Shown here piece after piece: positions 5,320 through 56,295 of a stretch of DNA of 64,000 nt. The position numbers and the translations under genes are program-made. The DNA is from Candidatus Nealsonbacteria bacterium (GTDB taxonomy: Bacteria > Patescibacteriota > Minisyncoccia > Minisyncoccales > PWPS01), in assembly GCA_003557645.1 (NCBI GenBank), contig PWNV01000020.1:78328-142327 (forward strand), given 5' to 3'. The notes under the pieces are model-generated. The model worked only from the letters and a program-made list of their open reading frames with translations, ran no database searches and was not told the DNA's origin. The stretch's first letter is position 1. Every line of letters begins with the position of its first letter.

Positions 5320-5827
5320 TTTCTTTCCCTTTTCTAGTCAAAAAGAAAACTATAATAAACATGGCAAGAATAGATCCAACCGCCACCAAAGCCACCCTTG
5401 TTGAAGAGTCCTTTTGTGTTTCTTCTGCTTCTTTTTGATGAATAGATATGTTCTCAAAATATGGTCCAAAAAAATTAAGAACTGTTCCCTCGATAATATT
5501 TCCCTCCCCTATAATGTCTTCGTCAGGAACATCTTCTACCGCTACATAAATTTCTGTAACTTCATTGACGGGATATAGCTCATCACAACTATCAAAATCA
5601 TGCTCCCACTCTCCGATCAAATCAACTTCGTTTACAAAAACATCCAAAATAAATCTCTTCGGATATGAAAGAGCAGGAAGATTTGGTTGTGACTGTTCTT
5701 CTGCTTCTTGAAAACTAATACTTAAAATTTCACCCCTAACAAAACAATCCGGAAGATACATCGGGCTAAGCCCATTCACAGAAACGGGAATTAATAACAT
5801 TATTACAATTATTATTTTTTTAAACAT
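5312..5827 (-). CDS. hypothetical secreted protein with C-terminal membrane anchor
   Basis: Signal-peptide-like N-terminus, acidic middle region, C-terminal TM helix (VALVAVGSILAMFIIVFFL). Confidence 0.4.
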   Translation of the reverse strand: MFKKIIIVIMLLIPVSVNGLSPMYLPDCFVRGEILSISFQEAEEQSQPNLPALSYPKRFILDVFVNEVDLIGEWEHDFDSCDELYPVNEVTEIYVAVEDVPDEDIIGEGNIIEGTVLNFFGPYFENISIHQKEAEETQKDSSTRVALVAVGSILAMFIIVFFLTRKGKENA

Positions 5828-5849: not shown

Positions 5850-6314
5850 TTAAACATTTTCTATTAATTTTTCTGCAAAAGACTTTGCAGCCTCAATATC
5901 TTTTTTACTCGGTCTTCCCTTGTTTACTCCTCCAATATACTTTATCGGCCCGTAAGTGTCATATCCTAAACAGTTAAAATCTCCCATCAACTCAAATCCC
6001 TTTTTTTCAAGAATTTTTTCCATGTGAGCATGGGATCTATTTAAGATAATATTCTTCTTCATTCCGCTTGTTGAAAAAATAAAAGCTTTCTTCTTATCCA
6101 CTTTTGGAAGATTTTCGACTAAATTAATTAATCCTTTATGAAACTTTGAAAGATAAACTCCTGAACCAAAACCCACTAGCTCAATCTCTTCTAATTCTTC
6201 TTTTTTTACATCAGAAAAAGAAACTACTTTGGCACTCAAAACGTTTCCTATTTCCTTGGCAATTTTCTCTGTGTTCTTGTGGTGAATAGAGGCATAAATG
6301 ATTAGAGTGTTCAT
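5850..6314 (-). CDS. flavodoxin-like protein
   Basis: 154 aa. N-terminal LIIYASIHHKNTEKIA pattern typical of flavodoxin-fold proteins. Confidence 0.65.
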   Translation of the reverse strand: MNTLIIYASIHHKNTEKIAKEIGNVLSAKVVSFSDVKKEELEEIELVGFGSGVYLSKFHKGLINLVENLPKVDKKKAFIFSTSGMKKNIILNRSHAHMEKILEKKGFELMGDFNCLGYDTYGPIKYIGGVNKGRPSKKDIEAAKSFAEKLIENV

Positions 6315-11530: not shown

Positions 11531-11550
11531 AGTCACTTTTGCTTTAAGTT

Positions 11551-11576
11551 AAAAACACCGATTTTTCGGTGTTTTT
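11551..11576. terminator. bidirectional terminator between hup (+) and maf (-)
   Basis: Hairpin aaaaacaccga-tttt-tcggtgttttt, flanked by an A-run and a T-run. Confidence 0.75.
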
Positions 11577-11585
11577 AATTTGACT

Positions 11586-12167
11586 CTATGTTTGCCAATA
11601 TCCTACCCTTTGGAGCATTGTAACTACCAACGACAAAGGAATGCCCATCAAGTTAAGGTGGTTTCCATTAATTTTTTCAATAAAAGAAGCGCTCAGATGT
11701 TTTTCTGTATCATAGCCAAGCGCAAAACGCTTAAATTCAGAATCTTGTTCAAGGTACGCTTCAATCTCTTTGTCTGAATATTTGCGCATAAAGATTTTAA
11801 CCTCATCATATTCTAGGGCGGTTTCGTTAGTTTTGGTGTTCACCATGTAAATCCCGGTATAATGCTGATGCTTTTCTCCCGAAAGAGATTGTAGTCTCTT
11901 AAAAGCTTCTTCTTTTGATTTTGGCTTTTCAAGAATTTTTCTTTTAAAAAATCCTACCGAATCAAATCCGATAACAATATTATTACTATAATCTGCAGAA
12001 ACCGCTTCCGCTTTCATTTTTGCCAGCTCCTTCACCAATTCTTCTGGCCTGTTTCTTTCCAGCTGCGTTTCATCAACATTACTTGCTACTACCTGAAAAG
12101 GAAACCCTAAGGTAGCAAATATCTCTTTACGATAGGGGGAGGTTGTCGCTAAAATTATTTTTTCCAT
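11586..12167 (-). CDS. maf: Maf family nucleoside triphosphate pyrophosphatase
   Basis: 193 aa. ILATTSPYRKEIF N-terminus and overall Maf layout. Confidence 0.85.
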   Translation of the reverse strand: MEKIILATTSPYRKEIFATLGFPFQVVASNVDETQLERNRPEELVKELAKMKAEAVSADYSNNIVIGFDSVGFFKRKILEKPKSKEEAFKRLQSLSGEKHQHYTGIYMVNTKTNETALEYDEVKIFMRKYSDKEIEAYLEQDSEFKRFALGYDTEKHLSASFIEKINGNHLNLMGIPLSLVVTMLQRVGYWQT

Positions 12168-15859: not shown

Positions 15860-16267
15860 TTACCTGCTCGCAGCATCAACATATAGCATGATCTTAACGA
15901 CCTCTTTTCGCACTTCCTCCGTTATTCCAGGAGTTCTGGAGGCCTCTTTAATCACCTTCTGAAACTTTCTCTTTATTCTATCCTTTTCATTTCTTGTCAT
16001 CTTTTTCCAGGGAGAAAGGCCCCACATATCTTCTCTTTCCCCGATAACCCTTTGCACATTTTTTAACACAATAGTGCAACTCTCTCTGCGATCGCTCTCA
16101 CTACGAGTTGTATCTCTTGAAAGGGAAATACAGTGATTAGCATGTCCAATGATTTCTCGAAGGATAATATCAATTTTCTTCTTTGTTTCTTTATCTCTTT
16201 TATCGTAAAGAAAATCTTCGAGATCATTTAGCATTTCAATAAAAAACATTAAAAACTCTCCTTTCAA
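15860..16267 (-). CDS. hypothetical protein
   Basis: 135-aa charged helical protein. No family recognised. Confidence 0.35.
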   Translation of the reverse strand: MKGEFLMFFIEMLNDLEDFLYDKRDKETKKKIDIILREIIGHANHCISLSRDTTRSESDRRESCTIVLKNVQRVIGEREDMWGLSPWKKMTRNEKDRIKRKFQKVIKEASRTPGITEEVRKEVVKIMLYVDAASR

Positions 16268-16447
16268 TTAAATTATGTAAAGGGCAAGACACCTGACCCC
16301 TCCATTGATACTATACCATATTTCTATAAAAAAACAAACTATACAAATTGCACTTCTTAAGCTTTTCTTTCTGCTCTACCTGATAATATTTGGTTTGCTT
16401 TTTTAAATAATGTATAATTTCAGAAATTAATTTATTAATAAAAAAAT

Positions 16448-51112: not shown

Positions 51113-52758
51113 CGTTTAGAAAAAGATTCAACTGTTCTAACAAGCTCAGGAGAATTAAGCGCTTTTGAGGTTAGAACATAAACTAATAATCCAGTACAGA
51201 AAGCAACAATAATTTGAATAAAAACATCCAGGAAAGTGTCAACATCTAAGATGGTCCCCGTTACACGTAAGGAAGCAAAGATTACCGCTCCCGTCAAGAA
51301 AGAAGAAGCGATGATTCTGATTAATGACTCGCCTATCTCTCTTTCTTTGAAAAATCCCATCTTTTTTTTCAAGAAAAATACAAGGAGAAGCAGATGCAAA
51401 ATAGTAGAAAATAAAATCGCCAAAGGAAAGGCAATAACTTCAATATGAGGAAGCAGCTCTTCGAGCCTTAAAAAACTTACAAAAAATGAACGAAAAAAAT
51501 TATCAAATCCAAGCGCCCAAATAAAAAGAAAAGAAAGCACTACATTAAAGGTCATCGAAGTAACCGACGCGATAACAGGCGTACGAGTGTCCTGGAAGGA
51601 AAAAAATGCACGTACAAACACATGTACAAGAGCGGTAGCAAAAAAAGAAAAAGAAAAAACGCCGAGAGAAGCGGCTGTTAACTGTGTTGCTCCCCACCCA
51701 AAAGCTCCTGTTCCAAGAACAAGACGAACAATTTGTGCTCGTAATAGAAAAACCGCTATACTTACCGGAATAATAAGAAAAAGAACTTGTCTTACAACCA
51801 TAGAAAAATGCTCTAAAAACATTTCCTTGTTCTTGGATGCAAAAGACCGTGAAAAAGCCGGGAAAGCAGCAACTGCAAAAGCTACTCCGATTATTCTTAC
51901 AGGAAAAGCCTGTAGATGTTCAGCAAAATAGAAAACAGAGATACTTCCCGCAGCGAGTGAGGACCCTAAGGCCGTGATTACAATCAAATTAATTTGAGTT
52001 GCAAACTGCCCGATAAAACGAGGTATTATTAAATGAAAAATACGCTTTAATTCTTTCTGTTTTAAGTCAATAAACCATTTATAGGAAAATCCTGAAAACT
52101 TAGCAGGAAATATTTGAATTGCAAAATGTAAAATTGACCCGATAACCACTCCCGCAGCAACACCCATGATAGCTTTTTCGGGATGAAAAAGCGGAACCAA
52201 AAAAATAATTCCAAAAATGATTCCTATATTATAAAGCACAGGCGCCAAAGAATATGCAAAAAAACGATCAAAGTACTGTAGTACCCCCGAAAAAAGACTA
52301 GACATCCCAAGGAGTACAGGGCTTATCATCATAATCCTGGTTAGTGGCACCATAAACTCTCTGTCTGCATCTGTAAAGCCAGGGGCGATGATTCGTATCA
52401 CTAATGGAGCAAAAATAAAGAGTAAACTACCTAAACAAAAAAGTATTAAACACAAAACATTTAATACATTATTTGCTAATTTCCACCCCTCTTTTTCGTT
52501 TTTTTCAAATGTTTCTGCAAAAACAGGAAGAAAGGCAGCTACAATTCCTCCTGTTATTAAGACTCCGTACACAAAGTCTGGAATCCTAAAAGCAGCAAAA
52601 TAAATGTCAAGATCAACTCCCGCTCCAAAGTTTCCAGCCAGAAGACGATCTCGTAAAAGACCTAAAAGCGCACTTACTCCTACAGAAAAAGCAATCAAAA
52701 CAGCAGAAAAGGTAATCGTATTAGATCTTTTGTTGAGTATGCGCTTTATCATCACCAA
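51109..52758 (-). CDS. murJ: lipid II flippase MurJ
   Basis: 549 aa, about 14 TM helices. N-terminal LGLLRDRLLAGNFGAG...DIYFAAFRIP is typical of MurJ/MviN. Confidence 0.85.
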   Translation of the reverse strand: MVMIKRILNKRSNTITFSAVLIAFSVGVSALLGLLRDRLLAGNFGAGVDLDIYFAAFRIPDFVYGVLITGGIVAAFLPVFAETFEKNEKEGWKLANNVLNVLCLILFCLGSLLFIFAPLVIRIIAPGFTDADREFMVPLTRIMMISPVLLGMSSLFSGVLQYFDRFFAYSLAPVLYNIGIIFGIIFLVPLFHPEKAIMGVAAGVVIGSILHFAIQIFPAKFSGFSYKWFIDLKQKELKRIFHLIIPRFIGQFATQINLIVITALGSSLAAGSISVFYFAEHLQAFPVRIIGVAFAVAAFPAFSRSFASKNKEMFLEHFSMVVRQVLFLIIPVSIAVFLLRAQIVRLVLGTGAFGWGATQLTAASLGVFSFSFFATALVHVFVRAFFSFQDTRTPVIASVTSMTFNVVLSFLFIWALGFDNFFRSFFVSFLRLEELLPHIEVIAFPLAILFSTILHLLLLVFFLKKKMGFFKEREIGESLIRIIASSFLTGAVIFASLRVTGTILDVDTFLDVFIQIIVAFCTGLLVYVLTSKALNSPELVRTVESFSKR

Positions 52759-52775
52759 ATATTAATATAAAAAAA

Positions 52776-53107
52776 GCTCAAGTAGGACGTAAGCTGAATT
52801 CTGTTATTCCTACAAAAAGTAGAAACGATAATCATTTATCTTGGCTTCGAATTACTTCGAAGCTCCAGCGGGCTACCAAAATTTGCCCTTGCACTCGGAT
52901 AGGGATTTAGCCGTTTCACTCCTAATGTCTCCATTAGGACTATTCCCGAAGGAATCGTCTTTCCTTACGAAAAAACGCGTCTCTGCTCGCACCCCTCGCT
53001 TTACAGCGTGCGGGAATTACCCGCTATCTTTTTACTTAAAAAGTGAGTGTTCAGACTTTCCTCCCTTCTTCATTAAAAAGAAGAGCGATTACCTCACCTA
53101 CTTGAGC
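52776..53107 (-). ncRNA. rnpB: RNase P RNA (bacterial type A-like)
   Basis: On the minus strand: P1 GCUCAAGUAGG pairs with CCUACUUGAGC. Conserved regions are CR-I GGGAGGAAAGUCUGAAC, GUGCAAGGGCAAA, CR-IV AGAUAAAUGAUUAUC and CR-V ACAGAAUUCAGCUUAC. P4 complementarity is AAGUCUGAA/UUCAGCUU. Confidence 0.85.
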
Positions 53108-53151
53108 CGAATTTAATAGTGACACATCTAGGGTAAAGTGTCAATAAATGT

Positions 53152-53181
53152 TAAAGGAGAGAGTGGTGTTCTCTCTCCTTT
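53152..53181 (-). repeat. 30-nt hairpin element, copy 1 (3' of the 139-aa Gre-like gene)
   Basis: taaaggagagagtggtgttctctctccttt, 100% identical to 53712..53741. 8-bp stem GGAGAGAG/CUCUCUCC. Only a 3-nt U tract follows on the minus strand. Confidence 0.8.
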
Positions 53182-53203
53182 AGCTTCCCAAGACTTTTAA
53201 CTC

Positions 53204-53623
53204 TTAAAGCTCATACAAATCAATGATTGTTATATTTAGCTTTCCTACGGGAGCATCTACAGTGACTGTTTCTCCAGGGCTCTTTCCCTGAAGAGCTTTA
53301 GCGATCGGTGCTTCTTCGGATATAAACCTGTAAAGATTATTGTTATTTTCAATAGGAGGTAGCTGCTTGCAGAATATAAGATCAATTTCTTCAGGACCGA
53401 TTCCTCCTACTTTCGCAACAAAAGAAAATTTGCTGTTTTTCATGAAATCATCAATCTCACGAAGACTCTTATTTACTCTTTCTAGCTCAAAATGAAGAGC
53501 ACCAGCAGTACTCCCCTTTTCGTCTCTGCATCCTGGGCCATTTTTGACATTACAGATCTGCTGATGTAACCTCTCTTTGCTTTCAAGTAATCTCTGCTTT
53601 TTTTCTTCTATTTCAATGAACAC
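53204..53623 (-). CDS. GreA/GreB-family-like protein (139 aa)
   Basis: N-terminal coiled-coil hairpin plus a C-terminal Gre domain: ISEEAPIAKALQGKSPGETVTVDAPVGKLNITIIDL. GTG start with SD aaggagg. Confidence 0.65.
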   Translation of the reverse strand: MFIEIEEKKQRLLESKERLHQQICNVKNGPGCRDEKGSTAGALHFELERVNKSLREIDDFMKNSKFSFVAKVGGIGPEEIDLIFCKQLPPIENNNNLYRFISEEAPIAKALQGKSPGETVTVDAPVGKLNITIIDLYEL

Positions 53624-53711
53624 TATATAACAACCTCCTTAAATTTTTAAAGCTTTGGGAAGCTTTGGTGATATAATATATTAATTTTTCTAAAAATCAA
53701 TAGATTACGTG

Positions 53712-53741
53712 TAAAGGAGAGAGTGGTGTTCTCTCTCCTTT
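53712..53741 (-). repeat. 30-nt hairpin element, copy 2 (3' of the 141-aa Gre-like gene)
   Basis: Identical to 53152..53181. Confidence 0.8.
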
Positions 53742-53759
53742 TTTGGGGTTTCAAGGGTT

Positions 53760-54185
53760 TTATTGTGGTATGTACATGTCAATGATTTCGACTTCCTGTT
53801 TTCCTCCCGGAGTAACAATGGTCACGCTATCTCCAGCGCCTTTTTCGTTAATAGCGATGGCGATCGGTGCTTCTCGAGAGATAATTATAAACGCTTCATC
53901 TTCCGATGCTATCGGAGGAACATTTTCGCAAACAAGCAGGTCCATTATCTTTCCCTTTATTCTGACAGTGGCGATAAAGCACACCCCGTTACCAACAAGA
54001 CATAAATCCACTCCTGCAATACTTCTTTCAGTTATTTTCATATCTTGCAGAATTGGAAGAATCATCTCCCGCTTGTTTTTCGCACTATCTGCGGCTTGAT
54101 TAATTCTACTGATCTCTTCCCTTCTTGTTAGATTTTTTTTAACCAGGTCACTTTTAATTCTTTCTAGCTCTTTTTTAAAGATCAA
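53760..54185 (-). CDS. GreA/GreB-family-like protein (141 aa)
   Basis: Coiled-coil N-terminus plus ISREAPIAIAINEKGAGDSVTIVTPGGKQEVEIIDM. TTG start with SD aaggagg. Promoter-like TTGACT-N16-TATTAT lies upstream. Confidence 0.65.
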   Translation of the reverse strand: MIFKKELERIKSDLVKKNLTRREEISRINQAADSAKNKREMILPILQDMKITERSIAGVDLCLVGNGVCFIATVRIKGKIMDLLVCENVPPIASEDEAFIIISREAPIAIAINEKGAGDSVTIVTPGGKQEVEIIDMYIPQ

Positions 54186-54266
54186 TTGGAATCCTCCTTA
54201 AAAGAAATTTGAAACCCCAAACCCTTGTCGTTATAATACAATATTTATAAAAAAAGTCAATAGCAA

Positions 54267-55973: not shown

Positions 55974-56002
55974 AAAAAAAGGAGGCACGCAAAGATGCCT
56001 CC
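55974..56002 (-). terminator. rho-independent terminator after the 97-aa Gre-C-like gene
   Basis: Stem ggaggca/tgcctcc followed by U7 on the minus strand. Confidence 0.7.
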
Positions 56003-56295
56003 TACTTGTTTTTTACATCAAGAATTTTAACAACAATTTTTTCCATTTTTCCAGTTTCTCTGCTAGCTACTTCATAAAAAACTTTTTCTCCTGGACCTGC
56101 ATTCATTGCTGCTTTAGCAAAAGGGGAAGAAAAAGATATTTTTAAAACCCCTTTCTCGCTCTGTGCTTCATCTGTGCTGACCATCCGTTCTTCTACAATT
56201 TCAATAGTTTCAATTTTCCCTGTATCTTGAAATTCAATTTTTGCTCGCGATCCTAGGTTAATTCTTGAGCAGTCATTTTTGACTGACATCATCAA
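56002..56295 (-). CDS. GreA C-terminal-domain-like small protein
   Basis: 97 aa. ISFSSPFAKAAMNAGPGEKVFYEV...KIVVKILDV. Confidence 0.55.
   Translation of the reverse strand: MMMSVKNDCSRINLGSRAKIEFQDTGKIETIEIVEERMVSTDEAQSEKGVLKISFSSPFAKAAMNAGPGEKVFYEVASRETGKMEKIVVKILDVKNK

Follow-up and report, generated by a model that had tools for sequence, protein, structure and literature searches.

Complementary predicted mRNA ends beside a weak terminator-like hairpin in two tandem Gre-like genes of a Patescibacteria bacterium

Two adjacent genes in a 64-kb stretch of DNA from a Patescibacteria (Parcubacteria) bacterium (35% G+C) pose a simple question. Their products share 28% identity. Why then is each followed by the same 30-nt hairpin, and why does each have, near the start of its predicted mRNA, a segment complementary to one lying between its stop codon and this hairpin? 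We call the whole 64-kb stretch the window, and the two genes Gre139 and Gre141, since they encode proteins of the Gre fold. The original prediction, made from the letters of the window, read the arrangement as compensatory change keeping a 5'-3' panhandle, and took panhandle and hairpin together to imply post-transcriptional control. Here, we show that the complementarity is kept, with changed sequences, in four related genomes, and that it belongs to the RNA strand of the genes. By analogy with the hbs mRNA of Bacillus subtilis, we find it somewhat probable that this is a long-range interaction between untranslated regions (UTRs), set beside a weak intrinsic terminator, that would shield the ends of the mRNA from decay.

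The two private inverted repeats announced by the original prediction are both there, and both are perfect (Table 1). The Gre141 pair spans 13 nt. The Gre139 pair spans 10 nt and can be extended to 26 nt at 77%. In both units the 3' arm touches the hairpin (0-nt spacer), and the predicted first nucleotide of the mRNA lies 2 nt (Gre139) and 5 nt (Gre141) before the 5' arm. When upstream and downstream regions of the window are paired without regard to gene, a perfect complement of at least 10 nt turns up in 5% of the pairs and one of at least 13 nt in 0.15%, mostly as A/T runs. Among the 78 open reading frames (ORFs) of the window, Gre139 and Gre141 are the only ones with an upstream/downstream complement of such quality. 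The Gre139 duplex reaches -21.7 kcal/mol (z -4.3, p about 0.001 against dinucleotide shuffles). When the other terminators of the window were scanned by energy against upstream intergenic regions, Gre139 was the strongest, Gre141 was no outlier and one other candidate appeared. Duplex energy alone discriminates poorly in this AT-rich genome.

Relatives of the locus were sought through the neighbouring protein MurJ, because searches with the Gre-like proteins gave only the same proteins and weak generic Gre matches: HMMER, run exhaustively on 1.8 billion representatives, had only Gre139 and Gre141 above E 1e-5, and a word-index protein search retrieved the same protein only. A 2.6-kb contig identical to the window gives the source as a soda-lake sediment metagenome (L001 = L030). 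The nearest relative, L051 (MurJ 81% identical), has a single Gre-like gene, flanked by the nuclease gene and by that of RNase P RNA (rnpB); it is the ortholog of Gre141. The loci L054 (identical to L055 and L056), L063 and L066, with MurJ at 61-62%, have one Gre-like gene each at the same place; L053 ends inside the region. The comparison set thus holds six units (Gre139, Gre141, L051, L054, L063 and L066) from five lineages, L055 and L056 being duplicates of L054. All six share one layout. A common predicted promoter (TTGNyT-16-TAnnAT, by pattern search) is followed by the 5' arm (+3 to +25), 9-22 nt, the Shine-Dalgarno (SD) sequence, the coding sequence and the stop codon. After 0-19 nt comes the 3' arm and, 0-7 nt further, the hairpin. 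Promoter-like boxes had been predicted to place the transcription start right at the 5' element; this holds in the window units, whereas the 5' arm of more distant relatives begins 12-25 nt past the predicted start site. The gap between 3' arm and hairpin is 4-7 nt in L054, L063 and L066.

The sequences of the arms differ between lineages and their complementarity stays. The arms of L054 (GCUUUUCCGGGGGUUC and GAACCUCCGGGAAAGC) form 16 bp with two G.U pairs, those of L063 (UAGGGUUUUUUGCUC and GAGCAAAAAACCCUA) 15 perfect bp, and those of L066 (GGUUUUCCCGAG and CUCGGGAAAAUC) 12 bp with one G.U, or about 12-15 bp. In L051 there are some 8-12 A/U-rich pairs around GGGUUUU and AAAACCC. Closer comparisons show how single pairs changed. 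The 5'UTRs of Gre141 and L051 align without gaps, and one C-G pair has become U-A; the arms of L054 and L066 look homologous, and there a C-G pair became G.U and a G-C pair became C-G. Computed with RNAduplex, cognate UTR pairs average -22.6 kcal/mol against -13.6 for non-cognate ones. The true assignment of 5'UTRs to 3'UTRs is the best of all 720 permutations, beating the 719 others, and the cognate 5'UTR is the top partner for five of the six 3'UTRs. Tested one by one against dinucleotide shuffles of the 3'UTR, four of the six units reach significance, namely Gre139, as above, L054 (p 0.004), L063 (p<0.001) and L066 (p 0.02). Hence, the compensatory change proposed from the window alone is borne out by its relatives. 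The strength of the individual pairs is uneven: it holds for Gre139, while Gre141 and its L051 ortholog are weak when taken alone.

Five G.U pairs tell on which strand the pairing is kept. Two are in the L054 helix, one is in the L066 helix, and the hairpins of L051 and L063 have one each, with the G on the 5' arm, which is valid on the gene strand only. No position that would pair on the opposite strand only was seen inside the helices by inspection. Wobble pairs of this kind fit the sense RNA alone, which indicates that selection acts on that molecule. When the full-length predicted mRNAs (518-655 nt) are folded, the minimum-energy structure of each of the six units includes the helix, with a pair probability of at least 0.9; the SD sequence is not paired to the 3' region and the AU-rich spacer stays open.

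The other half of the arrangement is the hairpin. The 30-nt element (TAAAGGAGAGAGTGGTGTTCTCTCTCCTTT in the plus-strand reading) has exactly two matches in the 64 kb with up to 3 mismatches, where 0 are expected. The two copies stand where the original prediction had placed them, after tandem and strongly diverged genes. Folded on the minus strand, the element gives an 11-bp stem and a 7-nt loop at about -16 kcal/mol (z -6.7). It had been described as an 8-bp hairpin with a 3-nt U tract; the U tract is as described, whereas the stem is longer, 8 bp being its G/C-containing core. The three flanking A-U pairs of the stem consume the only U run, so that the 3' side offers just UUU(A) or UUUU, already paired with the A tract, against 5-7 U at other terminators of the window. 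A terminator consensus scan of the minus strand called copy 1 and not copy 2. The relatives have hairpins of their own: AAGGGGGAGAG-AACACCA-CUCUCUCCCUU in L051, AAAGGAGAGC-UCA-GCUCUCCUUU in L054, AAAGGGGAGUU-ACGAA-AACUCCUCUUU in L063 and AAAGAGGAGU-CUAGU-ACUCCUCUUU in L066, with stems of 10-11 bp and a promoter 4-37 nt past the hairpin in every lineage. In an alignment of the five lineages with loops padded with N, 53 of 53 cells pair and five of the 11 stem pairs have changed on both sides. None of 500 shuffles matched this covariation score, and slid registers are only 51-81% paired. The claim of a conserved hairpin is thus right for the structure and wrong for the sequence, which varies among relatives. 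By its sequence the element looks like a U-poor, terminator-like hairpin under structural conservation. It resembles an intrinsic terminator in several ways: it is a stable stem-loop right behind a gene, preceded by an A tract and followed by U, its stem covaries and a promoter is next in line. It differs in having its 3-4 U within the stem, in arms that are purely polypurine and polypyrimidine in all lineages, and in the base-identity of the window copies.

This identity is a puzzling observation. It covers all 30 nt and ends exactly at the edges of the hairpin, and the adjoining arms are unrelated. Because the stem covaries between lineages, the 100% identity of the two window copies is a separate and unexplained fact; given such drift, it calls for gene conversion, for the gain of Gre139 by recombination between hairpins, or for sequence-specific recognition. 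A generic dispersed repeat (REP/MITE-like or attC-like) was considered and rejected. We searched the pattern AAAGGAGAGAG-N7-CTCTCTCCTTT in 185,579 GTDB species genomes, a collection that does not include the source genome, and in JGI metagenome contigs, and this locus is the only place where stem and loop occur together. The 48 other matches are single, unrelated terminators with other loops. The original prediction had named a repeat downstream of unrelated genes as one of the observations that would speak against it, and none was found in the window, the species genomes or the metagenomes.

How might such an mRNA work? In our reading, each Gre-like gene would form a small monocistronic unit, with an mRNA that folds its two ends together. 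A segment of 10-16 nt near the 5' end would pair with one in the 3'UTR, 0-7 nt before the terminator-like hairpin. The resulting helix would bury the single-stranded RNA near both ends and leave the AU-rich spacer, the SD sequence and the start codon free, and in both window units it could stack directly on the hairpin. We infer that the helix forms in the cell between transcript ends close to those predicted, and that it acts on decay: it would limit decay nucleases at both ends, i.e. 5'-end-dependent decay, endonucleolytic attack on the leader and entry from the 3' side, and this restricted access would set the half-life of the mRNA. Shielding should be strongest in the window units and in L051, where the 5' end would be paired within 2-5 nt. 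When a ribosome terminates 0-19 nt before the 3' arm, it would open the helix for a moment, and stability could in this way be coupled to translation. The hairpin would serve as a U-poor intrinsic terminator parting each unit from the next promoter, that of Gre139 and then that of rnpB.

The precedent is the hbs mRNA of B. subtilis, in which 14 nt of the 5'UTR and 3'UTR pair and compensatory mutants show that RNase Y cleavage is restricted and decay from the 3' side affected (PMC5737220; Braun, Durand & Condon 2017). It is from this restriction of RNase Y that we propose a shielding of both UTRs here. Both cases involve a small monocistronic mRNA, a fully complementary UTR stretch (14 nt in hbs, 10-16 nt here), a 3' arm just before an intrinsic terminator and a free SD sequence. 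An hbs-type complement of about 10-14 nt or more has as its counterparts 10, 13, about 8-12, 16, 15 and 12-15 bp in Gre139, Gre141, L051, L054, L063 and L066, respectively. The two cases also differ. Phylum (here Patescibacteria) and gene are others; in the window units the 5' arm begins at +3 to +6 and no spacer parts the 3' arm from the hairpin; and an effect on RNases is suggested here by analogy only. Pfam scans of ten larger ORFs of the window found no RNase III, Y or J. The 3'UTR element of hbs is not conserved in close relatives (review PMC7821165), whereas the pairing described here is kept across lineages with changed sequences. In the literature consulted, the bacterial mRNAs with 5'-3' UTR pairing are RNAIII/hld, icaR and hbs only, and the review leaves open whether the mechanism exists in other bacterial genes (PMC7821165). 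To judge from sequence comparison, the present locus would be a further case of the hbs kind, its novelty lying in the support from covariation, in two paralogs side by side and in the host phylum. A cis-acting RNA structure on a Gre-family mRNA is also known from the leader terminator of Escherichia coli greA, which yields GraL (PMC2836576, PMC6829880); GraL arises by termination within the 5' leader, whereas at the present locus the leader lacks a terminator and the two UTRs interact instead.

If this is so, the case matters for several reasons. Pairing kept through sequence turnover in several lineages and in two paralogs is comparative evidence of selection. The host belongs to an uncultured phylum with reduced genomes in which mRNA decay is unstudied, and the genes are paralogs of RNA-polymerase secondary-channel factors. 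The mRNA, of about 520 nt, would make a small and defined construct for studying how closing the ends affects decay, termination and translation.

Several observations weigh against shielding by an hbs-type helix. The Gre141 duplex has a p of 0.14 by energy and of 0.03 by helix length against dinucleotide shuffles, and the L051 pair has a p of 0.64 by energy, with only some 8 bp at -9.4 kcal/mol remaining; that these two pairs are not individually significant can be traced to their low-complexity UTRs, which are G/U-rich on one side and A/C-rich on the other. Thermodynamic folds ignore ribosomes and co-transcriptional kinetics. The start sites are predictions, and the helix would be impossible if the true starts lay downstream of the 5' arms. 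With 3-4 U against the 5-7 of other window terminators, termination at the hairpin is uncertain. The relatives L068 and L070 (MurJ 59% and 54%) keep rnpB, murJ and lepA and have no Gre-like gene upstream of rnpB, and distant short Gre-like genes (L057-L062; P0004, P0140, P0147) show no 5'-3' pairing. The sample is small, i.e. five lineages from one soda-lake clade of Parcubacteria. Finally, the evidence fits a helix that stabilises the mRNA and one that destabilises it alike. Thus, post-transcriptional control, as the original prediction had it, is supported by the sequences compared, and its kind (stability, processing or translation) is what we infer.

This last point leads to the alternative that survives best, although we hold it to be rather unlikely. 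The duplex might be one for processing or destabilisation, as in icaR or in rRNA stalks, i.e. a substrate of RNase III that trims or inactivates the mRNA, or frees it from transcripts that read through a weak terminator into Gre139 or rnpB. Such a role would suit the window, where helices stand at 0-nt spacing from the hairpin in both units and where the duplex, of 15-16 bp alone, would reach 21-24 bp if stacked on the 11-bp hairpin. Typical RNase III substrates measure about two turns, and the helices here (10-16 bp) are shorter. In L054, L063 and L066 the 3' arm stands 4-7 nt off the hairpin, so there is no continuous helix. The U tract is weak compared with other window terminators and rnpB is directly next; yet each unit, like rnpB, has its own conserved strong promoter. 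The 5'-3' duplex of icaR is indeed cut by RNase III (PMC7821165), but the SD sequence is never within the duplex here, unlike in icaR. The other side of icaR regulation was rejected. As summarised in PMC7821165, a UCCCC anti-SD motif in the icaR 3'UTR pairs with the ribosome-binding site and blocks initiation (PMC3868564). Here, the arms end 9-22 nt before the SD sequence in all six units, folds of the whole mRNA show no pairing between the SD sequence and the 3' region, and the sole anti-SD-like sequence is the 3' arm of the hairpin, which is masked.

A second alternative, to which we give little credence, is that closure serves translation. The helix would bring the stop codon near the ribosome-binding site, and terminating ribosomes would re-initiate, raising the output of a small protein. 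The geometry is right in six of six units, in which the SD sequence and the stop codon lie inside the helix at short distance and the SD sequence and AU-rich spacer are unpaired. The argument is purely geometric, however, and a precedent was not found in the literature consulted. A terminating ribosome would melt a 3' arm that starts 0-8 nt past the stop codon (Gre141, L051), and the distances vary more than twofold.

It seems still less plausible that the pairing aids termination, with the 5' arm keeping the segment before the hairpin from interfering with its folding, or with the helix stacking on it, boosting a U-poor terminator and shielding the Gre139 or rnpB promoter from read-through. 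One might have expected this from the constant order of the parts, since in every unit the 3' arm precedes the hairpin by 0-7 nt and a promoter comes 4-37 nt after it, and from the short U tract; moreover, the Gre139 3' arm, if not engaged by the 5' arm, can fold locally with the region of the stop codon into a hairpin. But leaving out the 5' arm is not predicted to give any alternative structure that disrupts the terminator, a partner 450 nt away is slow for the time window of termination, and the hbs precedent acts on decay and not on termination.

About as improbable is an elaboration in which helix and hairpin, stacked in the window as one helix of 21-24 bp, and in L054 and L066 knotted by a second 7-nt match, give closed or knotted ends that a specific protein recognises. 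In the stacked form the 5' end, with 2-5 free nt, would face the 3' end as in a nick. A candidate for the recogniser is the Gre-like factor, which evolves fast and would here act at the weak terminator of its own gene. The ends might even be joined by a ligase. If true, it would account for the base-identical hairpins, and would amount to a lineage-specific device, autoregulatory or circularising, for secondary-channel factors in Patescibacteria.

The weakest alternative, a feature of the DNA or of chance (ends of a mobile or invertible cassette, protein-binding sites, compositional complementarity or a dispersed-repeat hairpin), is very improbable and largely refuted: it could draw on hairpin copies that are identical exactly to their edges, on the step from one unit in L051 to two in the window, and on the non-significant arms of Gre141 and L051, but the arms of L054 and L066 with their G.U pairs are mismatched as DNA, two different arm pairs in one genome and others in each lineage are incompatible with a single recombinase or binding protein, the hairpin with this loop is confined to this locus in the window, the species genomes and the metagenomes, the true pairing is the best of the 720, and an inverton, cassette ends or an operator pair do not fit the differing arms, the DNA mismatches and the lack of any recombinase among the neighbouring genes of the window and of the relatives.

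What do these genes encode? The GreA/GreB C-terminal domain (PF01272) is the only domain that Pfam detects in both proteins. A profile built from the family aligns with Gfh1, GreA and GreB over almost their whole length (residues 8-137; E 1e-12 to 7e-11). The AlphaFold2 model of Gre139 (pLDDT 84.5) has helices at residues 2-28 and 35-63, which form a helical hairpin, and a beta domain; its top Foldseek match is Gfh1 in complex with RNA polymerase (3aoi_X, TMq 0.70). The model and the profile place Gre139 and Gre141 in the Gre fold, with an N-terminal coiled-coil hairpin and a GreA/GreB C-terminal domain. Gre139 shares with GreA, GreB and Gfh1 the antiparallel helical hairpin followed by a C-terminal beta domain. 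The proteins of this family, described as shorter, have 136-172 residues against about 156-158 in the known members, and the acidic residues at the coiled-coil tip, which transcript cleavage requires, are not clearly conserved in them: the tip loops read NGPGCRDE in Gre139 and NQAADSAK in Gre141, where acidic residues are present and not confidently alignable. Syntenic orthologs are 21-52% identical when MurJ in the same genomes is 61-81% identical. The family thus looks nearly orphan and very fast-evolving. Several of its proteins have cysteine pairs near the tip of the coiled coil, e.g. C24 and C32 in Gre139.

Upstream of the pair lies a gene for a PD-(D/E)XK nuclease. Downstream, hairpin copy 1 is followed by a TTGACA box, the RNase P RNA gene, murJ and lepA. 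The TTGACA box is likewise found 3' of the hairpin in L051, L054, L063 and L066, and every relative has the RNase P RNA gene at the equivalent place. The promoter regions of Gre139 and Gre141 are 70% identical (family D1).

Table 1. Position of the features of the Gre139-Gre141 locus in the window.
Feature	Position	Strand	Basis or remark
Gre141, gene for a 141-aa Gre-fold protein (predicted), TTG start	53760..54185	-	ORF list; Pfam GreA_GreB C-term; 52% identity to the single syntenic gene of L051
Gre139, gene for a 139-aa Gre-fold protein (predicted), GTG start	53204..53623	-	ORF list; Pfam GreA_GreB C-term
Predicted Gre141 promoter, TTGACT-16-TATTAT	54233..54260	-	Consensus scan; start site predicted
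Gre141 5' arm, UUUGGGGUUUCAA, predicted +6..+18	54209..54221	-	Inverted-repeat search
Gre141 Shine-Dalgarno sequence, AAGGAGG	54193..54199	-	From sequence; 9 nt past 5' arm
Gre141 3' arm, UUGAAACCCCAAA	53742..53754	-	5 nt past stop codon; abuts hairpin
Hairpin copy 2, AAAGGAGAGAG-AACACCA-CUCUCUCCUUU then A	53712..53741	-	Window scan, folding
Predicted Gre139 promoter, TTGATT-16-TATTAT	53673..53700	-	11 nt past hairpin copy 2
Gre139 5' arm, AGCUUCCCAA, predicted +3..+12	53655..53664	-	Inverted-repeat search
Gre139 Shine-Dalgarno sequence, AAGGAGG	53634..53640	-	From sequence; 14 nt past 5' arm
Gre139 3' arm, UUGGGAAGCU	53182..53191	-	12 nt past stop codon; abuts hairpin
Hairpin copy 1, 30 nt	53152..53181	-	Identical to copy 2
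Predicted rnpB promoter, -35 box TTGACA	53139..53144	-	From sequence; 7 nt past hairpin copy 1
RNase P RNA gene, bacterial class A, next transcription unit	52775..53104	-	Rfam RF00010, 137.5 bits, E 4e-42

A third Gre-type gene, also foreseen by the original prediction, lies 2 kb off on the upstream side of the pair (56002-56295, minus strand; Pfam E 1.2e-9). It encodes 97 residues, with the Gre C-terminal domain only, directly follows proS, and is kept in L051 (5606-5872, 88 residues). Its terminator (55981-56004) is canonical, with a run of seven T, and the scan of window ORFs for complements found no 5'-3' complementarity around it.

Some smaller observations concern the arms and hairpins themselves. 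L054 has a second match, between a 7-mer near the start site and one just past the stop codon (CCGUCUA / UAGACGG, 5600-5608 and 6106-6112). So has L066 (GUCCUUU / AAAGGAC, at about 1833-1839 and 2428-2434), where it competes with a local 5' hairpin. In both, this second 7-nt helix stands in crossing (pseudoknot) order relative to the main 5'-3' helix. Throughout the five lineages, the hairpin has a 5' arm made only of purines, which is SD-like (AAAGGAG, AAAGAGGAG), and a 3' arm made only of pyrimidines, which is anti-SD-like (CUCCUUU) and masked by the purine arm. According to a preprint, an anti-SD-like sequence can pair with a ribosome-binding site from a distance, and a free pyrimidine arm of this type would be expected to bind ribosome-binding sites (PMC12697547).

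The plus strand of the window has a sigma-70 match at 54209-54237 (11/12), whose -35 box is the Gre141 5' arm and whose -10 box overlaps the -10 of the minus strand; we judged it incidental. As a promoter (TTGAAA-17-TATAAT) it was rejected, the corresponding positions of L051 and L054 keeping no good -35/-10 by eye. The one other candidate of the energy scan would join the leader of the ORF at 15860-16267 (about 16285-16305, minus strand) to the end of the ORF at 11586-12167 (about 11595-11612, minus strand). It has 14 bp (four G.U) plus 4 bp at -26.3 kcal/mol, spans 4.7 kb and stands before a strong terminator (11550-11579). This pairing may be due to chance.

Further downstream, rnpB, murJ and lepA stand in this order in every relative, also where the Gre-like gene is missing, and the gap between rnpB and the murJ start codon is only about 17-22 nt (window 52752-53104, minus strand; L051 8222-8568). 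This leaves no room for a promoter, so that murJ may be transcribed through rnpB and then freed by processing.

The distant genes of L057-L062 have another context, adjoining gyrA and convergent with a xerC-like integrase gene, and were not taken as evidence. Their leader, about 70 nt before the start codon (e.g. L057 2430-2500), can form two alternative hairpins, the second of which ends in GAGAGGUUUUUU about 25 nt before the ATG. It has the look of an attenuator and recalls the leader terminator of E. coli greA, the source of GraL (PMC2836576).

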